63,131 nucleotides of DNA from Vermamoeba vermiformis. Lineage: Eukaryota. The notes under the pieces were generated by a model that was not told the origin of the DNA, ran no database searches, and worked only from the letters and a program-made list of their open reading frames with translations. Shown piece after piece: positions 1,766 to 63,131 of this stretch (within the stretch, counting starts at the first letter, position 1; the number at the start of each line of letters is the position of its first letter). Made by a program: the position numbers and the translations under genes. The stretch lies in assembly GCA_045837725.1 (NCBI GenBank), contig JBEWZL010000161.1:1-63131 (forward strand). The letters are read 5' to 3'.

Positions 1766-4700
1766 TTATTTCTTATGTTTCTTCTTTTCTTTGATGTTTG
1801 CAGCTGCTTGGGCTCCTTGCATTAAAATCATTTGCACTGGATCGTTGGTGTTATTATTTCTTGGTGAAATTTCATTAAGCACACGTTCTTGTTCTTTTTC
1901 TTCCTCTTCGTCTGAATCAGGCTCGTGTTTTTCCGTATAAAATGCAAGCAAATTTTGCAGTGAGCTTTGCGGTTGACTGACAAAGATAAATTCCGCTAAA
2001 AATAGAAAAGAAATTAGTATTTTTTGGCTTGAAAATCTTAATTAATTATTGTACGCACTTCCATCGGCTAAATGCAATATCGTGTGCGTTTCTTCGAACG
2101 CATTGCCACTAATGTCATCTTCAATCGTTTCTTCGCCGAGCGTGGCTCCTTTAGTGTCGTATAGCTCCTGCAAATGAAAACCTATCAATATTTGCAGTAT
2201 CGATATTAATTTCTCTCGTTAAATTTGATGTGAGAATGCAAAGCAGATCCGATAACAAAAAAGAATTAGAACTTACATTGTCAATGATGATCGTATGTCT
2301 ATCTTTGGACGAAATTTCGACACGTTTGAATTCGCTGCTAGGCTGAGGGGTCCATTTTAACCTTTCACCTCGGTACGTCACACCGCGGTTTTTCAACACA
2401 ACGGCTATGACAGTTGTTTTGACCTTTCTGCGCGCCAAAAAGTAATAAATCATTTTGCTATTTTTAGCGCACAAGGCCTCCATTAATCCGTCGCTAAACG
2501 CTTGTTCAAAATCTGTCTTTAAGATTTCGTCGAGAATTCTTTTCAAGATTCTGGTGCTCGGATCGTAATCGGGGAATGCTCCGGCGCATTTTATCAATCG
2601 TTCGTAATTTTGTTCTCTTCTTCGCACCTAAAAAACATAACAGACACGTCAAACTTCGTGAAAAAAAAGTCGTACAACAAATTTCCTTATTAGGAAATAA
2701 AATATTGTTGTAATTTTGACTTACATTAGCGTTGTAGAGCAATAAAGTTGAGACGCATTTCTGTACTTTCATTGAAACAGTTGTCGATTGATATTTAGCG
2801 AGGCAGATCTGACGGAAAAATAATATTAGACGACCGAACCTTTAAAAGGAAATACTAAAGTGTCAAACTGTGTACTTCAAGTGCGGTCTTTCCGTCAGCA
2901 TTTTCAACTTCCAATTGTGAATTGAGTCCTTGTTCGAGCAAAAACTTCATTGTCTTTGGCTTGGGCTCTATTGACGCCTGATGCAATGCCGTGTTGCCTT
3001 TAGCATCGATGTACAGCAATTTGAGTGGCGAGTTCGAACCAACCTAAGAGAATTTCCTTATTTAGAAAAGTACGAAAGAAGACAAATTTCCTTATTTGGA
3101 AGGCAGTGTCACATTAAACAGTTTTGGTATAATTGAAAAATTAAAAATTTTTTTTGGGAATATACCTTTTCCATGATCAATTTCAAAGCGTTTCTCGTGG
3201 CCGAATCTTTGCTGGACAACAAGCACGCTTGAACGATGTTCTTGTCGTTCATTGAAATGCTTTCGAGATACTCTTTTGGCAACAGACCGAAGTTCGGTTC
3301 CTATAAATAGAACAACGGTCACTCGCATGAGCAAAAAATGAAATCTCAAACCGATTTGAAAAACATGAGAAATCTGAATGCTCGATTGTAAATATTTGCA
3401 GACTGCTGGGTGAAATTTGCAGATGGTCCAGTGAAATTTCACTTGATTTGGAGGAGCACGTACCTTGGACATCAACGAGACGTTGTAAAACAAAAATCCG
3501 GTGGCAGGCTGCAAGAAGTCATCGCGATTGAAGACAATAGCGTTATGAATCACATCGCAGCCATGTCTAATATTAATTTCAGCCATAATGCTGTTCTTGT
3601 AGTTGTCGCGCACTGCGGTCAAGAATTGTTCCGCCAAAAACAGACCCACGAACAGATCTCTTTTGTTTTCAAGAGGATACTTGCTCAATCGACCTACAAT
3701 AAAATTAATAATGGATTATAACATTATGATATTACTCAATTGAATATTGATTTGATCGAAAAGCACAAGTTGGATCTGGATCCTGATCAGATCAGATCTG
3801 GATTCGGCAACGTAGAGAAATTTCGAGGCAAATTGAAGGAAAATATGATTATAGTCGTACCAAAGTATATCGATTCAATAAATAACTCCATATTCGCTGC
3901 AATGTCGTTTGGTTCCAAAGTCGGACTTTTAATTTCGATCTCGCGGTTGTCTTTGTCAGCCATTTCTGAACTAAACATTCCTCGAAAGTATTCACTGCCT
4001 AATTAGGAAATAATATTATTACTTCAGAATCGGTCTGCAAATAAAAAAAGAGTTTCTTACTGCATGCCAAAAATAATCTATGGCAGTTGTAGTAGTTTGC
4101 GTGACCGGCAATTTTAAGTTTGAAATCGCTGAGCGGCGTATCGGAGTTCACTTGCGGAACAATCTCAAGCGGGAGATTGTTCATTTTGTAGAGCACTTGG
4201 TATTTCTGGATGCGGATCAAAAAATTAAAATGGTGCGGAAAACAGAGAATTCTATTCGCATGGTATTATTGCTGATAATATTAACTTACTTCTATCAAAG
4301 GCTGCAATGCGCTCTTCAAAACTACATTTTCAGTTTTGCCGAGAACGGATGGCTCGTACAAACTTCGCAAAAATAATTCGGCTTCTTGTGGCTTATCCAA
4401 TAGCTCCTCGATAATATAAACGGTGTCTTTATCGTCAATTTTGTTATTTTTGAGGGCTTGAAGAAGCGCTGGGCTGCTGAGTTGGATCACAATTTGATGG
4501 CAGTTAAAGACGGCGCTGGAGGTGCTTGGTTTTGATACGGATATTTTTATATCGCTTAAAATAGGCGAATTAAACCATGATTGGAAGTTTACAATCGAAC
4601 GGCGAATTTCTAAAATTATTTAAAAATTGTTAGTCTTTACGATCAGCCGAAGCATATTGAATTTGATAGCCACCCGTCTTTACAGTATTAAAAATCGATT

Positions 4701-18276: not shown

Positions 18277-20690
18277 ATGGCGACAAGAGAACAAAATAGG
18301 TCATTAGTCCCAAAATCTCGGATTTCGCGTCGATCAGCAACGTGGATTGCAATTATTATCTTACTCAATATTGAATTGGTATCATCTCAACTGGGCGCAA
18401 CTGAAATAGACGCTCTAAACGACATTAAAGCCTCTATTGTACCAGCAAACCTTTGGGACACATCGAATCCGGACCAGTGCGCCTGGCCTGGCATTTCCTG
18501 CATTATAATATCGAATACTCAATATGTTTTTGAAATGTAAGTCAAACCAAAAGTAATTTCCAAAGGGTTAAACGACTGCGAAAGATGCAACTTAATTTTT
18601 ATTTGTGCGTTTCGAAATTTTGAATTTTTTTAATAAGAGTATTATTATATCGAACGCATTATTTCAATATTGGATCGATAATTTTCATACCTAATTTGGC
18701 TGATTATTTACTAACGTTAACTTTACCTACGCAGAAGTTTGTACTTTGGTACTTCATTTCAAATAGCCATTCCTGCTACGTTTCAAAATTTTGCGAATAT
18801 TAATTCACTCAGTATTGCCAATGCGACGCTTACTGCGCCGTTGCCAAATCTTGGTGCTATGAAAGCGATCCAGTTAACCAACGTATCCAACATCCAGTGG
18901 TCAGCCAGTTCTTCGCTTAGAAATATTAACTTACTATACTGTACTATGGATGCACTACCCGTACTCTCGAATTATCCTAGTCTTCAATACTACATACTTA
19001 TTGGCGGATCTGCTACGAACAACGCGTTCTCGATCACTTGCCCTCAAGGATATGGCTTACTTGTGCTACACATTGCAAGAATAGCTGTTGTTGGATCAAT
19101 TCCTGACCTCACCGGGTGTACTTCAATACAAATTGTAATATTGAGCGATCTGGGTCTGCTGAGCGGCCAACTTCAGTCACTAGCCGTATCGACAGTTTTG
19201 CAACTCACTTACTCTGGCAATCAACTGACTGGAACTATACCACCTGAAATCATAGCACTGAAAACCTTATTCTTTTTGGATCTATCGTACAACAAACTTA
19301 GCGGAACTTTGGATCCGGCAGTCTTTTCAAAACCGGCTTTAGTTGGCTTGAGCTTAGTAGGCAATCAATTTGAGGGCACTATACCTGATACTTTTCAAAC
19401 CTCGGCATTGAGTGCACTCGCCTTGGGAAGCAACAAACTCAACGGAACAATTCCATCGAGCTTGGTTGCTCATCCAAAAACTACGTTGCTTGACTTGCAA
19501 AACAACCAATTGACTGGCACTATCCCGAAATTTGCTGCGATTGGCTTGACAACTTTGAAATTGAACAACAATCAATTTACTGGAACGATCCCGGATATTT
19601 TCTACTCGAATGTGACTTACAGCCAGATCGACTTGAGCAACAATCAGCTTATTGGATCAATACCAGCATCATTATATAGAGCTCAAAATATTACGACTGC
19701 ATTGAGTTTGGCTAACAACACTTTGAGCGGATGCGTCGAAACCGCACAGTACACTGTCCCACAATTATGCGACTTATCGGGCAACTTTTTTTGTTGCAAA
19801 TCTGATACTCCATTGTGCCCGGTAGTAACAAACTGTAAGCGATCATATTGAAGTACTATCCAATCATTTCTAACGAAATTTCATAGGTCGAACATGCCCT
19901 CTGCCAAAACCGACGGAAAATGCCACGTGTATTGTCGATTCAAACGGCAATCCTGTCTGGCTCGTGATTGGTGACCTCATTATTTCAGCGAACAATACAA
20001 ACAGCACTGCCATTCAGAACGGCTATGTTGATGGTAACTTGGTCACGATCACTTCAGTCACCATTGACGGCGTTACTGTGACTGGCAACTTGACCGTAAT
20101 TGGTGATTTGACTGTCAACGCCGGTGTCATTAAAGTGCAAGGGTGTGCTTATGTGAACGGTAATTACGATCTGAATAATAGTGCGGCAAACATGCTGACT
20201 GACACTTGTTGACAGGTTCGTTGACACTTAACTTGACACCTGAAGAGATTGACCAGTTGTCTTTGAACGGAACTATAACACGTGATTTGATTCAATATGA
20301 CGCACTATGCGCTGATTCAACGGTTAAATTTGATACAATTGTCGTTCAAGGAGATGGTAAGTTACTCGATTTTTGATAAAAGCCTAATAATGTATGACAG
20401 TCGATTGCACTGAGTTGACTGGCAAGCAACAGAATTCACCTGGTTTAGTGTCTATCGTTGTGACAGCGTCAAAAATAGATTGCCCGGTTATAACCCCCAA
20501 CGCCCAACCATCGCCTCCAAATCAACTTCCTGATTGGGCAATTGGAGTAATCGTTGGTGGTTCTTGTCTAATTGTCGGAGTTATTATAATGGCAGTGTTA
20601 GTAAGCAGACATCTGAAGTTGAAGAAAAAAGAAAAAGGAATTAATCAGCGGATGGTGTCAGCCTCGACCAGCGTTCCACCTCTGCAATAA
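18277..20690 (+). CDS. Single-pass LRR receptor-like protein with no kinase domain
   Basis: Signal peptide, LRRNT (CAWPGISC), plant-type LxxLxLxxNxLxGxIP repeats, a Cys-rich juxtamembrane region, TM helix WAIGVIVGGSCLIVGVIIMAVLV and a short basic tail. Confidence 0.88.
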
Positions 20691-20865: not shown

Positions 20866-22563
20866 ATGAGCATTTTGGAGCTGCCTAAAGAGATTCTGCA
20901 AGAGATTTGGCGATTTATCGTCGAGATCGAGGATATTCTTCGGTATGCACAATAATGGCTCATATATATTTTTAAATTTACTTTCATATAAATATTCATT
21001 GTTGGTAATATATCCTATTATTTTGATTGTTATTGAAATTTAATATTAATTTTTTCAATATTTTCTCAGGTTTGGAGCGACATGCAAGAAAATGGATTCT
21101 TTGTCATTCACAGTGGATAGGCACATACATTTGACCGAAGATTATCCAATGGAGATTTGGAAAAATATTCTCTCGCGGGATCTGCAGCACGTGCGAACAT
21201 TGTCGTGCGATTATTACTACAGTTCTAGAAAACACTCGGAGGCAATTTGGGTCATCGACAAATTAATACCTCTATCGACATTACGTAACCTCAATGACTT
21301 CAGGTGCCAATTTATAAATATTGGACGATCTGATGAACCAAACTTGGCGCCAAAATTTCTGGATCTGACGCAGACTATCAAAAACATGACCTGGCTTGAG
21401 AATATAGAAGCTTTATTTCCTTTACCAAATAATTGCAATATTGGCGAGTTATTTAAAGATCACTCGATATTGACAAAGTTAGCGGTAATCTTTGGTGAAG
21501 GTAATACCTAGTTAAAACCAAAAATTTATATTTAATATTAATAGATTAATTTAATTAGGTATCGGCTATAATACACTTACTCAAATCAAATCATTGGAAG
21601 TTTCATACTGTGAAATTACCCCGAAAGTTTTTCAACAAATCGTTTCGTTAGATAATTTGACCGAGCTAGATCTATCCGAGACATGTGGAATGGAAGCGGA
21701 ATTATATCAATTATCGAAATTGACTAATTTGGAAGTGATCCATTTGAACGGCTTGGCAACCGTTATAGATCTGAAAATACTAGAGTCTTTGCCAAAATTG
21801 GACAAGTTATTGATCGATTCAGGAGAAGAAGAGTACATGGTCGAGCAAATTTCAATCGAAGATTTAAACAGATTGACACGATTAAAGCATTTGGACATTT
21901 ATGGCGGCAAGAATTTCTCGGATCTTGATCCGACAAGAATCGCCAATCTGACCAATCTAGAATATTTATGTTTCGAGATGAAAGTAAACGGCAAATATGG
22001 ATCTTTTGCAGATTTTTCAGTGTTCGAAAGATTAACAGCGCTGGAGATCTTTGATGCTTCGGATGTGAAGCACATCCACCTTCCACACAGATTGAAACAC
22101 CTAACAATACGAGAATTACAATACGAGGATGCTATGAATCATATATGTCAAGTTGATAGTATCAAATCATTGTCTCTCTACTGGTGGGGTGAATCTGCGG
22201 AATCGCTGATCCAGATCAGCCGATTGACGAACCTCCGCAACATTTCATTAACATTTTCTCAGAAACTAGAAGGTAAATTTTCCCAAGCAGTCTAGTGACA
22301 TTCTCAAATACGTATTTAAGTTTAAAAAAAAATCGATCGGATCTGACACTAATTTTTCAGGGCAAGTTCTCCCTCACTTGACAGGCCTACATCGTCTACA
22401 ATCAATGAATATAGATATTATAAGTACATTGCAAGATGTTGATGCACTTAAACAATTAACGCAGCTTCAGCAATTGACCATTAGTAAAGTCTCTCGAAAC
22501 TGTCCATTGACACTGCGCGAAATTCGTCAACAACTGCCTTTTGTAGTATTTAAATATAGATAA
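20866..22563 (+). CDS. F-box/LRR protein
   Basis: MSILELPKEILQEIWRFI is an F-box start, followed by many LxxLxxLxL repeats over 4 exons. Confidence 0.8.
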
Positions 22564-22770: not shown

Positions 22771-24920
22771 AGCAATTATTCTACGTAAGTAAACGAAACA
22801 ATTAACAAAGATTGCCGTATTTAATCAAAATAACGTCTTGTATCTATTTCGCTAGCTTTGCGCTAACGAGTATCGCGAGGCAGAGACTCAACAGAGTGCT
22901 TGGGCGGTAGATTTCACCAGCACTCGTGAGGCCATTGTTGTTGCGTGGAGTTGCAGTACTTGGAGCGATGGCTGTTTGAGGTTGATTCGGATTAATTGAT
23001 GGGCTACTTGATGAGCACACTACAGTCACTGATTGCAACACGGATTCTGCACCAAATCGTTGGATCTCAAAGTCGACTTGAACGGTGTCGGTACTAACAT
23101 TGGAATAATTATGAACAACTGTCGTTATCATTGACGCACAATCTGATTGCGTTGTGGTGCACACCTGGTTTGCATCAAAGTCGTTCATGTTGCATGAGTC
23201 CACCAGGGCATATTGAGAGCACGTGTAGTTTAGTGGTTCAAAAAGACAACGAGGAACAGAGTGAATGACTTTGTTGCCGTCAATAAGCAAATTTTTGTCG
23301 GTCAAAGTCATTGACAAGCCGAAATAGAGCTGGTTGATAGAGCCAGATATCAAGCCAACAACCGACCACGTGCCTTGACGTCGTTGAATCACAGCGACTC
23401 TGCCAGTCTCGTTGCTTTTTTGCTCAAAGAGTGGTGCGGAGACCAAAACGGTGTCTTGGCCAATAGGCAGAATGTCGTAGCCAAAGCCTCCCTGTGTTAA
23501 GCCAACGTCTGAATCATTCGTTGGCGTCAACGTCTTCCGAGAACCATTTGCAGCAATAATGTACGTGTAGAGGAAGGTTGAAGCACTCGAAAAAATGGTA
23601 TCGTTCCCGTTCCAAGCCAGATCGTTGATGCCAAACAAACGGGTTGAGCCGTTAAATGAAGTGTTAAGGGTCCAAGTCCAATCTAACCCTTCATAGATGT
23701 TTATCTTGCCCGTTAGAGAGGTTTCTTGGCTGAAGGCGATTAACGTAGTGTCAGTAAAGTGAAACACTGGCTTCCATCGTCGAAGGGCCAAACCAGAGGT
23801 AGATCCAAATTGCAAGTTTTCCTTGAACGTGAAATTTCCAACGAGCGTCCATTGCAAGTTGACTAGTGCAAAGTGATATATTGATGCTGGTCTTGGAGCA
23901 AATGTTGAGCTAAAAGAACTGAAGGCAGCCAGAAATCCATCGGACAAAAATCGGACAAATTCGATGGTAGAGCCATTGATGTTTGGCTGCTGAATGTTGC
24001 TGATTGAACCATTATCTTCCACCTTGAAAATGATCAAAGTCGATGGAGCTATTCCGAGTTTGTCAAAGTACGATGTTGCGACCCATCTTCCATTCGTATC
24101 AACATCGGAATAAAACGACGTGGAGTTGGAGGGCAAGTTGAACGTAGCAAATGAATCAAATCCACCTGTCTGGTTTTGTTTCAGAACTTGGATTTGACCA
24201 GGATTGTTCATAATGGAAACCAGCCAATCATTGACGACTCGGATCGTTCCTCCAGCGTAGCTGCTGATGGAACTTGCCAAGTCGATCGCCGTGTTAATTT
24301 GAGCTTCAACGATCTAGTCATGTACAACGGATCAATAACAAAAAAATCAGTAAAAAGATATTTTTTCTGCATACCGGCAATGAGCCATTGACTGTCAAAA
24401 CAGGCATTTGCGCATGTGTCACCGAGACTAGGGCAACAGCGATACATAATGCTGTTATGATGCGGTTCATGATTGTGTTGTTCAGTGAACTTGCAAGTAT
24501 CGTATCGAATTTGTGCAAATTTTTGACTCTAATCATGTACCCGAGGTATCTGATTTTCCGAGAAATTCTTTCGCAAAATAAGCAAGTGCAAAGCCTGTCA
24601 CGTGTCACAAAGTAACCGGACTCATTTTGGTGGTCAGATTCTTTCACCTATCGTACTTTTTTATGTTTATACTTACATATATGATATTCATGACTATTCA
24701 TTGGTGCTTATGAAGTATCAGAATTCGCGCAAAGATTCGGGGCAACTTGACTAAACGAAAGATCCGGACACGAACTCTGCCAGCATGTGAGCCAATAATG
24801 CTCGTACATTTGTATTCATGATCACCTGAAAAAGATATTATCTATTGATTTATACAGCGAAGAAGTCTGATCCGTTCTTTGCCGTCGGATGTCGTCATCA
24901 AAATCTTGCGCTATCAATCT
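22771..24920. repeat. Arm 1 of a ~2.15 kb inverted duplication (partner 58360-60540)
   Basis: The reverse complement aligns by eye with 58360-60540, including upstream and downstream non-coding DNA and the intron position. Confidence 0.92.
22844..24470 (-). CDS. Secreted/GPI-anchored beta-propeller-like surface protein, copy 1
   Basis: Signal peptide MNRIITALCIAVALVSVTHAQ, one intron 24314-24374, FG-GAP-like FGYDI...VLVSAP motif, Cys-rich domain, stalk and GPI-like C-terminus. Confidence 0.85.
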
Positions 24921-56400: not shown

Positions 56401-57678
56401 TTACAACGAGAACTGCACGCCGTAACTCGAGTGCAAACTATCGACTGAAAATGACTTTTCAACGCTCTTCGTGTACAAATAATACCACGTGGATTCAATC
56501 TTATCTAAGAACTTCTTTTCTTCACGGTACTTGCACACCAATTTCATACCTAGATCTGCTAGTGTGACTTCGTACCATTTTGGAGACCACGAGGACCAAT
56601 ACCTAAAAAGGAAATTTATCTTTTAACGAGAATTCTGAACCTGTTAATATCGCAGATATAAACGCCTTCTAAATATCTTGACACCGTGAAAAATGTGATG
56701 ACACTGAAAAATGTATGAGACACCCCGTGAAATTTCCTAAGACTGCATGCCAAGCGGTATATTTGTAATTATATCTACGAGCATTTTAAGTATAAACTCG
56801 TGCAAAAAATGTGACACGTGTCAATAAAACTAAGTGTTTCTTACATCGTTGTGCCGAGCCAATCTTCTTCGAGACCTTCACCAGCCTCGCCGTCAGGCAC
56901 GGTAAATAATAGCTTGCCATTAGCCTCTAATATCCTATGAATATTATAAAACAGATCCGCGTGCATTGTTCGTGGCAAATGGAACAACGAGAACAAAGCT
57001 GAAAAAAATAATTATTATTTATTTATTGCTAATTAATTATGCGTACCTAATACTGCAGCAGCTGAATGATCGGGTTTTTCTCGGCAAAATCGAAGCATTT
57101 CGCTTTGAATAAATTTGTGGCTATGTTTCGGATAGTGATCTCGCGCCAATTCTTTAAGGTTGAAAAAAAGTATTATTATCTCGTATATTATATTTAAATA
57201 TAGTCATTTTATCGTACCTAACTGGCTATCAGCAATATCTACGCCAATGTAATCGAGATTTTTCTCCTCGATCTGAAATTGACGCCAGATTAGAAATTCT
57301 GGTTCGCTAATAATATTATTTTTTCATATTATAGTATTAATATATTACTTACTTTATCGAGCACGGGGTATCCAGCTCCACAGCCCAGTTCTAAACTGTC
57401 ATTAATTACACAAGATCTGAAAAACTGCGTATTTCGCATTGGAACAACGTGCAAAGAATTAAATAGCACTTGTAATATTATAAATATAATTTCTAATAAC
57501 TTTCAGACTGGGAACTCGAGATCTTACCGAGTACTAAACCTTTCTTCGGGATCGCGTCTAAAAACATTTGAAATATTGCTAGCTGGACTAATGAATCATC
57601 TTTTTGCTGACTATATGGCAATGCTGCCTTTTGATACCCTATTCGCACTAAATCGACGAGTTCTAGTGCTGGATCCAT
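56401..57678 (-). CDS. Class I SAM-dependent methyltransferase
   Basis: Spliced motif I VLELGCGAGYP, YIGVDIADSQL, LFSLFHLPR and GKLLFTV. Confidence 0.85.
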
Positions 57679-58359: not shown

Positions 58360-60540
58360 AGATTGAGCACAAGATTTTATCTAAGACAACCGACTTGGAT
58401 CCAGACCTTCGGAACTCGCTCCTTCACTGTACTAATCAATAGATAATATCTTTTTCAGGTAATCATGAATACAAATGTACGAGCATCTTATTATTTATTG
58501 GTTCACATGCTGGCAGAGTTCGTGTCCGGATCTTTCGTTTTGTCAAGTTGCATCGAATCTTTGAGCGAATTCTGATATTTCATTAGCACCAATGAATAGT
58601 CATGAATATCATATTTGTAAGTATAAACATGCAAATGTATGATAGGTGAAAGAATCTGACCACCAAAATGAGTCCGGTTACTTTGTGACACGTGACAGGC
58701 AATGCACTTGCTTATTTTGCGAAAGAATTTTTCGGAAAATAAATAAACAGCGAGCACTTGATAACAGTTAAAATTTGCACAAGGATCATAAAATTCGATA
58801 TGATACTTACAAGTTCACTGAACAACACAATCATGAACCGCATCGTAACTGTATTTTGTATCGTTGTTGCCCTAGTCTCGGTGACACATGCACAAATGCC
58901 TATTTTGACAGTCAATGGCTCTTTGCCGGTATGCATTTTGACACCACATAGAAAAAAATCTTTTTCCGTAATACTGTTATTGATCCGTTGTACTTGACTA
59001 GATAGTTGAAGCTCAAATTAACACCGCAATCGACTTGCCAAGTCCGAACAGCAGCTACGCTGGAGGAACGCTCCGAGTCGTCAATGATTGGCTGGTTTCC
59101 ATTATGAATAATCCCGGTCAAATCAAAGTTCTGAAACAAAACCAGACCGGTGGATTTGACTCTTTTGCTACGTTCAACTTGCTCTCCAATTCCACGTCGT
59201 TTTATTCCGATGTTGATACGAATGGAATATGGGTCGCGACATCGTACTTTGACAAACTCGGAATAGCTCCATCGACTCTGATCATTTTCAAGGTGGAAGA
59301 TGATGGCTCAATCAGCAATACTCAGCGACCAAACATCACTGGCATCACCATCGAATTTATCCGATTTTTGTCCGACGGATCACTTGTTGGCTTCAGTTCA
59401 TATGCCCCAAATGTGGTTCCAACGCCAGCATCGATTTATCGATTTGCAATGGTCAACTCGCAATGGACGCTCGTTGGAAATTTCACGTTCAGCGAAAACT
59501 TGAAGTTTGGATCTATTTCCGGTTTGAGCCGATGGAAGCCAGTGTTTCACTTTGCCGACACTACGTTAATCGCTTTCAGTGCAGGATCTTCTAGAATTGG
59601 CAAGATAAACATCTATCAACGACTGTCGTCAGACTGGACTTGGACGCTCAACACTTCATTCAATGGCTCTTCGCGTTTGTTTATCATTGACAGCCTTGCT
59701 TGGAACGGAAACGATACCATCTTTTCGAGTGTTACAGGCTTCTTCTACACGTACATCAATACTGCAAATGATGTTTGGCAGACGTTGGCACCAACGAATG
59801 ATTCGGACGTTGGCTTAACATTCAGTAGCTTTGGCTACGACATTCTGCCTATTGGACAAGACACCGTTTTGGTCTCCGCACCACTGTTTGATCAAAAAAG
59901 CAACGAGACTGGCAGAGTCGCTGTGATTCAACGACGTCAAGGCACGTGGTCGGTTGTTGGTTTAATATCTGGCTCGATCAATCAGTACTATGTTGGCATT
60001 ACAATGAGATTGACTGACAGACGTGTGTTTTTTGACGGCGACAAAGTCGTCCACTCTGTTCCTCGTTGTCTTTTTGAACCACTCAACTACACGTGCTCTC
60101 AATATGCCCTGGTGGACTCATGCAACATGAACGACTTTGATGCAAATCAAGTGTGCACCACAACGCAATCAGATTGTGCGTCAATGATAACAACAGTTGT
60201 TCATAATTATTCCGATGTTGGTACCGACACCGTTCAAGTCGACTTCGAGATCCAAAGATTTGCTGCGGAATCCGTGTTGCAATCAGTGACTATTAGCTGC
60301 TCGTCGAGCAACCCATCAACGAATCCGAATCAACCTCAAACGGCCAACGCTCCAAGTACTGCGACTCCACGCAATAACAATGGCGTAACGAGTGCTGGTG
60401 AAATCTACCGTCCAAGCACTCTGTTGAGTCTCTGCCTCGCGATACTCGTTCACGCAAAGCTAGCGAAATAGATGTTATTTTTATTAAATACTGCAATCTT
60501 TGTATTAATTGTTCGTTTACTTACTCGTACAATAATTGCT
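58360..60540. repeat. Arm 2 of the inverted duplication (partner 22771-24920)
   Basis: Reverse-complement match to 22771-24920. Confidence 0.92.
58833..60471 (+). CDS. Secreted/GPI-anchored beta-propeller-like surface protein, copy 2
   Basis: MNRIVTVFCIVVALVSVTHAQ, with an intron at ~58929-59001 in the same position as copy 1. Long blocks are identical to copy 1. Confidence 0.85.
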
Positions 60541-60677
60541 TGCAAAATTGATCTCGCAATGATGAAAAATAAAATTACGCATGGGAGAAATCTTAACGTG
60601 ACATGTGACAGGCGTCAGCTTTGCCTATTTTCCGAAAGAATATCTCGGAAAATAAATATACCACTTAAAAGTATTAA

Positions 60678-63131
60678 AGGAGCATTCTGGCGCCCTGGTT
60701 GACGTGACCAATCAAACGGGAAAAATTGAACGGAACACCACACGAGCTTACTATTTATTTTTACTTTTCCTTTGCCTTTGTCTATTATTTCGCAGCCATG
60801 ATTTTATCCTTGCTGCATCCCACTCCGATCCAAGCTTTTTTTGGATTTCTTCGAAACTTTGGTCCGATAAAGGTGAATCCTTGTCTAAATAAGCTACTAA
60901 AAAATTGTATTCATCTTTAGTAGTGGTGCGCCGCCGCTTTGGATTCGATTTGGAATTTTCTTGCTTTTTTTCCGTTGTGGATTTATTGTCTTCTCGCTTT
61001 CGCTTGCCTGCAACCTTCGGTGTGTCATTTGCAGGAGCATTAGTCAATTTTTTCTGTTGATTAAGCTTTTTTTGGGCCTCTTTGGCTGCCTTTTCAGCTT
61101 CGCGTCGTTCTCGCTCCTGCAAGATGAAGTACTTCTTGTAGATATTTGCCATTGAAAATTCTGTGAGCTCTGCTGCATCGATTGGGTCTTTGAATATATC
61201 AAGAGCAAGCCTCTTAATAATTTGTCGCTCAAAAACGGCAAGGCCTGCATCTCTGGCCACTGGATCTTTCGCTGCGTTCCAATTTAGTGTTCCAACTGCT
61301 CGTAGTGCACTAAAATTGTCTATTTTTGAGAAATGGCAGTATTTTGGTGTGTAGACTAGACATGAATGAAAGTACGATTCAAGTTCACTAGAGTGACGCG
61401 CACGCACAAGACGGCCAGCTATCTCCTTCGGGGCACCTTTGCTGCCAAATATTCCTTTTTTCATAAACTTGTCAAGTACATCCAAGGCTTCCTTATTTGT
61501 TACGATTGTGAAAGGCACAGGATTCTTCGCATCCGCATCCAAGTCAGCCAAGTCGTCATATGAAGCCCAATTGTGGGTGGCGCATGATGCATTATTATTG
61601 TAGCTATAGCATAGTGAGTGATCGTTTTGAACATGGTTGACAAAGTTAGATAAGAGCTTCACGAATAGATCCGAGTCACCGCCACAGTGATGCAAGCAAT
61701 ACCAGGCATGCTTCTTGATGAATACTGGCTTATCCTTCAATTGGTCCCAGTAAGATTCTTTCTTCTTTGCTTCAAAGCACTTGTTTGCCTTTTTCTCTGT
61801 CTTTTCGACCCAGTGCCAGCAGTCAGTCGATAAATGCTCTATGTCAGGATGTCGCTCGCGCATCTGCTTTGGAATAGACCCATGAGCATCATATATGACC
61901 TCTTTGATTGGTATGTATTGCTTCAGATGTGCAAGACCAAGGTTGAAGCCGATAACTTCGCAATGAACGGATCGGCCAGCATCCTTGCTTGGTATGACTT
62001 CAAAGTGCAGTACTTTCTTCGTATTATAGTCCATAAATGCTTCAACACCATAACAACCATCTCTAGAAGAGTCCCATGTCATATCAGCGACTACAATTTG
62101 TGGTTCGTTGGTCGCGGCGGCTGCGCGTAACAATTCGTAAGATTCATTAATGTGGCTTTGAAAAATAAGGGGATTGATAGTTCTTTCGAGAGTAGTGTAC
62201 CATAAATCATTTGAGATCGATGGTAAGCCAAGTGTCTGGCCAAAATGAGTCCATTTTGAGTGCGTAATTCCTGACAACTGACAAGCTAACACTACTGCAG
62301 CTGCGGGAAACTGACTTGAGGAATAAGATATAGGAGCCCATTCAAAGCTAACAGCACATGTGTTGCACTTAATTTGATACTTCAAGCTGCCTTTGAAGGT
62401 AGTTTCGTGCTGGGTGTACAAGCGACCACCACATGAACAATAGCAGGCTGTAATTAATTGAGATAGTTGAGAACGCTGCACGAGTGCAAAGGAGAACTTG
62501 AATTGATTGCGAAGTTCTTCGGTTGTTGGAATAGAGTTTGGATCAACTGGTGTCGCGGGAAGCAAATCAGACAACGAAGCAGCCAGATTCAAGTTATCTA
62601 CATCTTCTGCTGGTACTGATTGACTTGAAATATATCGATCTATCAATATGGATATCAATTGCGAATTAGACTTGAGTTGTAGTTGCTCCCGAAGCGCGTA
62701 AAATCTGGGAGCGACAGATTTGCTCAATGATATCTGATTTCGCCCATTAATCGCTCTGAATTTTTTCTGTCTCTTATTTATTGCCGCCTTGCTCTCCTTG
62801 CTCACTCGGCGCATGTTAAGCGATGGATGAAGCTTCGAAGAAATAATATTTAATTTATTTTTACTTATTTTAAGTATTTGACATGCAATTATACGATTAT
62901 GTACATACTTGTATTTGTTTACTACTAAATTGGAATTATTAAACCACGGAACTACGGATTTGGATGCGAATGCGGAATGTTTTAGCTTAGTTGTTTCTAT
63001 TTTGGTGTTACAGGAGTTAAGGACGAACAAATACAATAAGATATAAGCAATATTATAATGGTGATGTGTGGTGTTCGGTAGAAAAAGATAACGAGCAAAA
63101 ATTGCGTTACCAGGTAACGCAGAATGCTCCT
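60678..63131 (-). mobile_element. Kolobok-superfamily DNA transposon, apparently complete and autonomous (2,454 bp)
   Basis: TTAA at 60674-60677, then AGGAGCATTCTG (60678-60689). Its exact reverse complement CAGAATGCTCCT is the last 12 nt of the window. AG...CT termini enclose a single transposase ORF. The second TTAA would lie beyond the window. Confidence 0.88.
60751..62814 (-). CDS. Kolobok-type DDE transposase with a C-terminal homeodomain-like module (687 aa from the first ATG)
   Basis: Intronless. N-terminal RFYALREQLQLKSNSQLISILIDRY, Cys cluster CYCSC..CNTC, catalytic candidates ADMTWDS / IYDAH / ELESYFH, a DCWH motif, H2CH-like NHVQNDH..CATH, and C-terminal KRRRTT...IKSWLRNNRQR. Confidence 0.85.
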   Translation of the reverse strand: MRRVSKESKAAINKRQKKFRAINGRNQISLSKSVAPRFYALREQLQLKSNSQLISILIDRYISSQSVPAEDVDNLNLAASLSDLLPATPVDPNSIPTTEELRNQFKFSFALVQRSQLSQLITACYCSCGGRLYTQHETTFKGSLKYQIKCNTCAVSFEWAPISYSSSQFPAAAVVLACQLSGITHSKWTHFGQTLGLPSISNDLWYTTLERTINPLIFQSHINESYELLRAAAATNEPQIVVADMTWDSSRDGCYGVEAFMDYNTKKVLHFEVIPSKDAGRSVHCEVIGFNLGLAHLKQYIPIKEVIYDAHGSIPKQMRERHPDIEHLSTDCWHWVEKTEKKANKCFEAKKKESYWDQLKDKPVFIKKHAWYCLHHCGGDSDLFVKLLSNFVNHVQNDHSLCYSYNNNASCATHNWASYDDLADLDADAKNPVPFTIVTNKEALDVLDKFMKKGIFGSKGAPKEIAGRLVRARHSSELESYFHSCLVYTPKYCHFSKIDNFSALRAVGTLNWNAAKDPVARDAGLAVFERQIIKRLALDIFKDPIDAAELTEFSMANIYKKYFILQERERREAEKAAKEAQKKLNQQKKLTNAPANDTPKVAGKRKREDNKSTTEKKQENSKSNPKRRRTTTKDEYNFLVAYLDKDSPLSDQSFEEIQKKLGSEWDAARIKSWLRNNRQRQRKSKNK

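Follow-up and report, generated by a model that had tools for sequence, protein, structure and literature searches.

The right-hand end of contig JBEWZL010000161.1 from Vermamoeba vermiformis raises the question of whether a transposase can carry a homeodomain and, if it does, where that domain came from and what it is for. The window, meaning the whole stretch of DNA that was analyzed (63,131 nucleotides), closes with a 2454-bp element holding a single intronless gene on the minus strand, and the C-terminal tail of the encoded transposase had been read as a homeodomain in a preliminary description. Profile comparison and structure prediction support the tail as a true but atypical homeodomain, with a turn longer by two residues and with Leu and Arg at positions 49 and 50. 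Taken as a whole, the element is likely to be a compact cut-and-paste transposon of the Kolobok superfamily whose C-terminal homeodomain was gained once and has been kept since. The features of the gene that concern the tail are listed below. Residues are given in the numbering of the window open reading frame (ORF; P0001), which equals the numbering from the first ATG plus 74.

60751 to 63036, minus strand: transposase ORF including the open upstream frame, which is open to the window end.
60751 to 62814, minus strand: transposase coding sequence, 687 amino acids from the first ATG (MRRVSK...), the putative start codon, to the stop at 60751-60753.
60943 to 61134, minus strand: long helix (residues 635-666) and then a disordered K/R-rich linker (residues 667-698), from the AlphaFold model.
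60766 to 60942, minus strand: atypical homeodomain, residues 699-757, from the profile match, PDB sequence matches and AlphaFold.

The tail reads PKRRRTTTKDEYNFLVAYLDKDSPLSDQSFEEIQKKLGSEWDAARIKSWLRNNRQRQRK (residues 699-757 of the window ORF) and is followed by SKNK and the stop codon at 60751-60753. The boundaries in the preliminary description (60763-60943) agree with these within 3 nt. Its account of a tail set behind a coiled coil and a basic linker is matched in the AlphaFold model by the long helix at 635-666 and a disordered basic linker at about 676-700; in ATG-based numbering, the helix is 561-592 and the predicted local distance difference test score (pLDDT) lies below 50 over 602-626. 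At the other end of the protein, the alignment of the relative P0003 to the window ORF begins at residue 102.

When the tail alone (the last 79 residues) was compared with Pfam, Homeodomain (PF00046) was the sole family matched at E <= 10, with 22.2 bits (E 1.3e-4) over profile positions 2-57 of 57. This is the match that the preliminary description had proposed to look for with HMMER. PF00046 was also the top family in all five of the tails available (window ORF, P0003, P0004, P0158, and P0159). The P0004 tail alone scored 28.5 bits (E 1.3e-6), above the curated gathering cut-off of 22.9 bits, and the whole P0004 protein stayed above it at 23.3 bits; the whole proteins P0158 (21.7 bits) and P0159 (17.3 bits) fell below. 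A profile of three tails searched against PDB sequences gave 41 matches at E <= 1. Thirty-four of these, the best 12 included, were homeodomain proteins as judged by molecule names, among them POU-class, ATBF1, PBX/Exd, HESX1, OTX2, Engrailed, Bicoid, NANOG, WUSCHEL, and ceramide-synthase homeodomains. The window tail by itself found homeodomains in seven of its eight matches at E <= 10. The nearest solved homeodomain sequences were those of the POU class, ATBF1/ZFHX3, and PBX/Exd.

Structure prediction gave three helices in the tail. Modeled alone from its single sequence, the tail had a mean pLDDT of 75.1 and helices at 707-717, 728-735, and 741-759. In the model of the whole protein, the tail reached pLDDT 80-94 and its three helices 87-94; these lie at 707-714 and 725-735, with a long third helix at 741-760. 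The four best Foldseek matches of the tail model in the PDB were the homeodomains of ATBF1 (HD3), WUSCHEL, PBX1, and HOXA13. The structural check named in the preliminary description thus returned a predicted three-helix fold with homeodomains ranked first at E > 1, a result consistent with a homeodomain and short of proof.

Helix 3 of homeodomains carries the signature W48-F49-x-N51-x-R53 in the standard position numbering. In the window protein, helix 3 reads W747-L-R-N750-N-R752, so that W48, N51, and R53 correspond to W747, N750, and R752, and positions 49 and 50 are L and R. The three signature residues, the Arg at position 50 and an insertion of about two residues before helix 3, all reported in the preliminary description, are present in the alignments. 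W48 and N51 are invariant in the five tails and R53 is kept in four of them. The window has L at position 49, P0003 has Y, and P0004, P0158, and P0159, which read WFNNKRQ, have F. All five tails lengthen the turn between helix 2 and helix 3 by two residues; the window domain places 58 residues across 56 profile positions and so departs from the canonical 60-residue length, and accepted homeodomain classes also include atypical lengths. HMMER alignments to 2da1 and 1ocp place the basic arm KRRRT against the N-terminal arm, L713 at position 16, and L717 at position 20. The window tail is thus like classical homeodomains (PF00046) in its arm, its three helices, W48/N51/R53, the hydrophobic positions 16 and 20 and its full-length alignment. 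It differs from them in its place on a transposase within a mobile element, an arm one residue shorter, the two extra turn residues, L49, R50, and a score just under the cut-off.

In the tails of P0004, P0158, and P0159, the loop between helix 1 and helix 2 is three to four residues longer and contains an NPHPS motif. A three-residue extension of this loop is carried by TALE-class homeodomains, and the PDB sequence matches include PBX and Exd.

A hidden Markov model of the three tails, compared with 151 proteins, separated the window ORF, P0003, and P0004, each above 100 bits, from the remaining 148, none of which exceeded 4.9 bits. Against the longer proteins of a 5.8-billion collection, the tail profile found four matches: P0003, P0004, P0158, and P0159. 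Word-indexed homologue searches, made with the whole protein and with the three-way alignment, returned only P0003. P0159 stands for nine member sequences on six contigs, and the body of P0004 is about 28% identical to the window protein. In metagenome contigs, 188 pattern matches reduced to one true locus (L001), which is P0159-like and has a coverage of 3.9. At this locus, a 1-nt frameshift in a poly-A run interrupts the homeodomain and helix 3 goes on in the next frame; given the coverage, the frameshift is possibly a sequencing error. Retention of the tail in relatives, which the preliminary description had made a test of its claim, came out in favor of that claim: the tail is in frame in five of five protein records and is broken only at the single locus fetched. 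In the same locus (269-2560), two in-frame stops no more than about 50 nt apart separate an N-terminal region at 269-838 from the body at 887-2404, a pattern that could mark a short intron or decay.

The history of the fusion was assessed on a maximum likelihood tree of the catalytic core only (quick IQ-TREE). The tree held 76 rows, namely 74 of 75 alignment rows with at least 200 residues plus P0158 and P0159; the row dropped by the length filter was likely the N-terminal fragment P0005. The five homeodomain bearers lay on one side of a branch with a Shimodaira-Hasegawa-like approximate likelihood ratio test (SH-aLRT) value of 95 and split into two subgroups separated by about 2.5 substitutions per site. 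A single change of state explained the distribution of the domain, and none of 500 label shuffles gave a number as low; the distribution covers the 150 listed of 503 relatives. Between the subgroups, identity was 32-36% in the homeodomain vs 11-31% in the upstream linker, the length of which varied. Within the window/P0003 pair, a point on the other side, the contrast was slight, at 46% for the homeodomain vs 42% for the linker. As judged from these sequences, the simplest history that fits would be a single gain of the homeodomain in an ancestor that lacked or had lost THAP, followed by retention. The preliminary description had suggested that the transposase captured the domain, and the core-only tree lends that suggestion its backing.

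P0030, P0066, P0069, and P0107 form the sister group of the homeodomain clade (SH-aLRT 97 for the joint group), although P0030 sits on a long branch and its placement is unsure. Neither a homeodomain nor THAP was found in the scans of these four proteins, and their termini may show the ancestor as it was before the homeodomain was gained.

The body of the protein is an RNase-H-fold DDE transposase. Its features are as follows.

62527 to 62814, minus strand: N-terminal basic and helical region, residues 75-170, conserved in P0003.
62356 to 62439, minus strand: CxC...CxxC zinc-ribbon-like motif (C200, C202, C224, C227), invariant between the window ORF and P0003.
61225 to 62337, minus strand: RNase-H-fold DDE catalytic core, residues 234-604, from alignments and fold match.
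62083 to 62085, 61888 to 61890, and 61378 to 61380, minus strand: candidate catalytic residues D318, D383, and E553, from conservation.
61573 to 61635, minus strand: H2CH-type motif (H468, H473, C485, H488), from conservation, with H488 read from the sequence.

A profile search of 1.84 billion representatives recovered 503 relatives at E <= 1e-3, matching the profile from about 180 to 600. Conservation was measured on a 75-row alignment of the window ORF and 74 hand-picked relatives, mostly longer ones. In this alignment, D318, D383, D405-x-W407-H408, H468, H473, and C485 were at least 90% conserved, as were three zinc-ribbon cysteines (C126, C128, and C150 in ATG-based numbering). E553 was invariant only in the three-way alignment, and the last H of the H2CH motif is Q in the second subgroup; the catalytic roles of D318, D383, and E553 are putative and follow from conservation. 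The AlphaFold model of the whole protein had a pLDDT of 79.6, above 90 in the core, and a predicted template modeling score (pTM) of 0.70. Five of its six Foldseek matches at E <= 1e-3 were chains of the IS256-family transposase ISCth4 (E 6e-5, probability 1.00); the sixth was an SPT6 chain, and retroviral integrase cores, P-element transposase, and Hermes came further down. The relatives, the conserved D/D/DxWH residues, and the ISCth4 fold match bear out the earlier assignment of the body to the DDE transposases.

The body of the window protein matched no Pfam family at E <= 10. Of the 150 relatives listed, 149 were scanned, 50 of them at E <= 1e-3 and 99 at E <= 1e-4; 62 of the 149 matched PF20700 ('Mutator-like transposase') and 30 matched an N-terminal THAP, part of these matches falling below the curated cut-offs. 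P0004 (28.3 bits) and P0159 (27.6 bits) both pass the PF20700 cut-off of 26.5 bits. The window protein gave no PF20700 match at E <= 10, and its relation to the Mutator-like transposases therefore holds only at the superfamily level. Compared with the IS256/Mutator-like group (PF20700; ISCth4 structures 6xgx, 6xgw, and 6xg8), the window element shares the best structural match of the catalytic body and has many relatives in PF20700; it is unlike that group in the window protein's own lack of a PF20700 match and in its Kolobok-like TTAA/AGGRR ends, Mutator ends being outside the comparison.

In the N-terminal region, residues 75-170, neither THAP nor any other Pfam family was found with the whole protein or with N-terminal pieces at E <= 10; nor was THAP found in P0003 (scan at E <= 0.01), P0004, or P0159. 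The region has pLDDT values of 36-69 and is 55% identical to P0003 over residues 102-170. Within it, ISLSKSVAPRFYALREQLQLKSNSQLISILIDRYI (residues 101-139; 62620-62736, minus strand) shows a strand-helix-helix pattern resembling a ribbon-helix-helix, and a similarly arranged stretch occurs in the N-terminal ORF of L001. The ribbon-helix-helix reading of residues ~101-139 found no Pfam support at E <= 10 and falls in sequence of low pLDDT. It bears on which domain binds the element ends.

The limits of the element were set from its inverted ends and from the unitig limits described below.

60674 to 60677, no strand: TTAA target site adjoining the left terminus; TTAAAGGAGCATTCTG matches once in the window.
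60678 to 63131, minus strand: entire element (2454 bp), an autonomous and compact DNA transposon of the Kolobok type.
60678 to 60743, plus strand: left inverted end, AGGAGCATTCTG (60678-60689) and the subterminal ACGGAACACCACAC (60730-60743).
63066 to 63131, minus strand: right inverted end, AGGAGCATTCTG (63131-63120) and ACCGAACACCACAC (63079-63066).

The terminal and subterminal blocks lie at equal offsets (0 and 52) in both ends. The subterminal ACSGAACACCACAC block was found in the window only at 60730-60743 and 63079-63066, and none of 100 shuffles gave two or more matches. The terminal 12-mer alone did not reach significance in a BLAST across the window (E 0.37-0.86); its weight comes from the fact that it adjoins TTAA, sits at the window end, and has a second block at equal offset. 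From the matching inverted blocks and their positions, the element is therefore placed at 60678-63131. The right-hand TTAA, and with it a putative duplication of the target site, would fall past the window. Neither a tblastn search of the window nor a search for the terminus with up to three mismatches found another copy; the latter returned the element's own left end and one three-mismatch site at 56622, no more than chance would give (two or more matches in 16 of 100 shuffles). The last base of the window, 63131, is the transposon terminus, and the source contig may have broken at a repeat boundary.

Kolobok elements, in the available part of PMC6004289, insert at TTAA, have termini of the RR type (AGGRR in T2-MITEs), and encode transposases that usually combine a DDE core, THAP, and H2CH. 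The window element has TTAA abutting its terminus, AGGAG (AGGRR type) at both ends, a DDE core, and H2CH; the usual N-terminal THAP is missing from its protein. The Kolobok label given in the preliminary description thus fits apart from THAP, with homology of the DDE core judged through relatives that have both THAP and core rather than through a named Repbase Kolobok sequence. The element resembles the Xenopus Kolobok elements (XKol/T2-MITE, as described in the portion of PMC6004289 available) in its TTAA, AGGRR-type terminus, DDE core with H2CH, and single-ORF cut-and-paste form. It differs in lacking the N-terminal THAP often found among the relatives from the profile search, in having a C-terminal homeodomain after a long helix and basic linker, and in length: 2.45 kb vs 6.7-13.9 kb for the ten full-length Xenopus copies given in that part of PMC6004289.

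Mobility was judged by comparing Logan contigs of two DNA runs with positions 58500-63131: X1, which is possibly the source of the window itself and to that extent is not independent support, and X5, a water metagenome from an independent study. In X1, the element unitigs had a word depth of 2085-3158 vs 295-306 for the unitigs of the neighboring gene; word depth of contigs is not copy number, and relative to the summed depths of the flanks (about 450-1500) the element is in excess by only about 2-6-fold, which tempers the multi-copy reading. The high-depth element unitigs start at 60673 and end four letters past 63131, limits that are expected of a repeat whose copies have TTAA in common on either side. 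X1 contigs, which drop rare variants, list no variants inside the element. Another flank appears in one X1 contig, as an unlike stretch of 172 letters ahead of 60668. One X5 contig matches 60674-61335 with two differences, at 60718 in the 3' untranslated region and at 61294 in coding sequence upstream of the tail, so that the homeodomain segment is covered; it has 72 unlike letters before 60674, and since this contig with another flank matches from 60674, TTAA is included in the match. A further X1 contig follows the flank through 60677 and then runs into non-element sequence, representing either an empty allele or a paralogue. In the window itself, the flank at 60597-60677 is paralogous to 58684-58772 and the similarity ends at TTAAA, where the element starts. 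From the depth, the unitig limits, the unlike flanks, the element-less flank, and the paralogous flank, a recently mobile multi-copy element is the best reading of these sequences, and the element is probably still mobile. Two raw-read RNA runs labeled with the same species (X20 and X22) placed no reads at all, even on the flanking gene, a result that carries no weight on expression.

As to function, the homeodomain would be a sequence-specific DNA-binding module that helps the transposase to recognize or pair its own ends, a tentative role whose chances are put a little short of even. The candidate site would be the ACSGAACACCACAC block, 52 nt inside both termini, and the homeodomain would then assume some or all of the job that THAP does in other Kolobok elements. 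Its basic arm and the linker could double for nuclear import. By analogy, end binding at the C-terminus has a parallel in the piggyBac transposase, whose C-terminal domain binds the transposon ends. The main reason for caution, and a point against this role, is the conserved N-terminal region, which could itself be what really binds the ends. An unlikely alternative role is self-regulation through the promoter of the element, and a part mainly in nuclear import is a further one. The most far-reaching version, in which a classical homeodomain would work as the sequence-specific DNA-binding domain of an active transposase, replace THAP, and act as a mobile source of homeoboxes, is distinctly unlikely.

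Other explanations concern the nature of the tail as well as its use. The tail might be another three-helix helix-turn-helix (HTH) domain, Myb/SANT-like or of the Tc1/mariner-pogo 'homeodomain-like' type, that resembles a homeodomain by convergence and basic composition, and several results weigh on that side of the scale. All 15 Foldseek matches of the tail model had E > 1, none reaching E <= 0.001, and Myb/GARP domains (PHR1, ARR1) ranked 5th to 12th, close behind the homeodomains. The window tail falls 0.7 bits short of the PF00046 cut-off, the P0003 tail alone falls below it at 16.4 bits, and within the whole window protein PF00046 reaches only a near-threshold 15.7 bits (E 0.013). The PDB sequence matches are modest, at best E 0.011 for the single tail and 0.013 for the three-tail profile. 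The high pLDDT of the tail in the whole-protein model rests on three alignment rows that cover it, and a language-model protein atlas queried with the tail gave no usable match, an empty result from which neither absence nor novelty follows. The window/P0003 subgroup has Leu or Tyr, not Phe, at position 49, and the insertion before helix 3 takes the domain away from the canonical 60 residues. Against this, at lenient thresholds the window, P0004, and P0158 tails match PF00046 and no other family, no transposase HTH or Myb family matches the tails at E <= 10, and the tail covers the PF00046 profile end to end; the second subgroup has WFNNKRQ and a score above the curated cut-off, and no Myb protein occurs among the PDB sequence matches, 34 of 41 of which are homeodomains. 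Convergence of this kind is accordingly quite improbable. Equally, the tail and linker are very basic and an E-value of 1.3e-4 is the best for the window tail, which could mean a chance match of a low-complexity K/R-rich C-terminus; yet five tails from two subgroups about 28% identical in the body match one Pfam family over its full length, conservation extends beyond basic residues to the hydrophobic core and the contact positions, and AlphaFold folds the region with confidence. A chance match is hardly credible and close to refuted.

With the tail taken as a homeodomain, its owner might still be a domesticated host transcription factor or a single-copy relic in which the domain serves host regulation. 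The element is single-copy in the 63-kb window, and Kolobok transposases have been domesticated repeatedly according to the available part of PMC6004289. Against domestication, matching inverted ends flank the ORF, together with TTAA and an AGGAG terminus, none of the candidate catalytic residues has been lost, public contigs show the element beside at least two other flanks and deeper than the neighboring gene, and an element-less flank ends exactly at TTAA; it is very improbable. A real homeodomain used for target-site choice, or for tethering to AT-rich or promoter DNA, instead of end recognition is doubtful but carries more weight. Chromodomains of some retrotransposon integrases are a parallel for tethering of this kind. 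The element inserted at a TTAA in AT-rich sequence, inside a motif that recurs upstream of the genes of one family, the domain stands at the end of a long flexible linker, and the N-terminal region could leave it free by binding the ends itself; against these points, only one insertion site is fully visible, the two further flanks being known from 30-letter consensus stretches.

The HTH 'homeodomain-like' fold is well known on Tc1/mariner-type transposases, where these domains are N-terminal and paired-like and are not known to be of the PF00046 type with WFxNxR. The window domain shares with those of Tc1/mariner, pogo, and IS630 (Dici, in the accessible portion of PMC13469147) the presence of an HTH module on a DDE transposase, and it differs in being C-terminal, in belonging to another transposase superfamily, and in matching the classical homeobox profile; the match reported for Dici in that portion is to the InterPro homeodomain-like superfamily IPR009057. 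In the parts of PMC1702500 and PMC3537659 that were available, AP2, BED, THAP, Paired, VP1, and WRKY are the DNA-binding domains common to transcription factors and transposons, and the homeodomain is placed among the domains without a transposon link. In the available part of the homeodomain review PMC4901127, only the PAIRED domain is linked to transposases. Searches of full-text literature, with subscription journals, Repbase reports, and supplements outside their scope, brought up no account of a homeodomain joined to a Kolobok transposase or to another non-Tc1 DDE transposase, and the one paper that mentions Kolobok, a homeodomain, and a transposase does so in unrelated contexts; Repbase reports or subscription papers may already hold a record of the architecture. 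What appears new, as judged from sequence comparison, is a PF00046-type homeodomain at the C-terminus of a Kolobok transposase, homeodomain-like HTH modules on Tc1/mariner-type transposases being known.

Transposases and transcription factors have repeatedly exchanged DNA-binding domains, and the homeodomain would be a new entry in that exchange, joining THAP, BED, WRKY, Paired, and AP2 as a domain common to both. If the reading is true, the clade would be a mobile source of new host homeobox genes, through domestication or through movement of homeoboxes between genomes, and domesticated descendants, if they exist, would mark a route for the origin of lineage-specific homeobox genes. The clade would also offer a natural experiment on how a transposase swaps its end-recognition module and on whether a homeodomain can direct the choice of ends or targets. 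At 2.45 kb and with one intronless gene, the element should make excision and binding assays practical.

The sequence into which the element inserted belongs to a motif of about 80 nt that occurs three times in the window, at 58684-58772, 60597-60677, and 24553-24608 (minus strand). In this motif, GTGACAyGTGACAGGC precedes a palindromic TTTTsCGAAAGAAT.T.TCGGAAAATAAAT. Two of the three copies stand upstream of paralogous 478-amino-acid ORFs that are 83% identical (59035-60471, plus strand, and 22844-24280, minus strand). The third copy is the landing site of the transposon and suggests a third paralogue just past the window end. Several other window ORFs of at least 200 amino acids matched no Pfam family. 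Leucine-rich repeat (LRR) ORFs at 18739-19851 and 21594-22295 (plus strand) matched LRR_1, LRR_8, LRR_14, and others. The stretches just 3' of the two paralogous ORFs are also alike, with 88% identity between 60474-60540 and 22771-22834.

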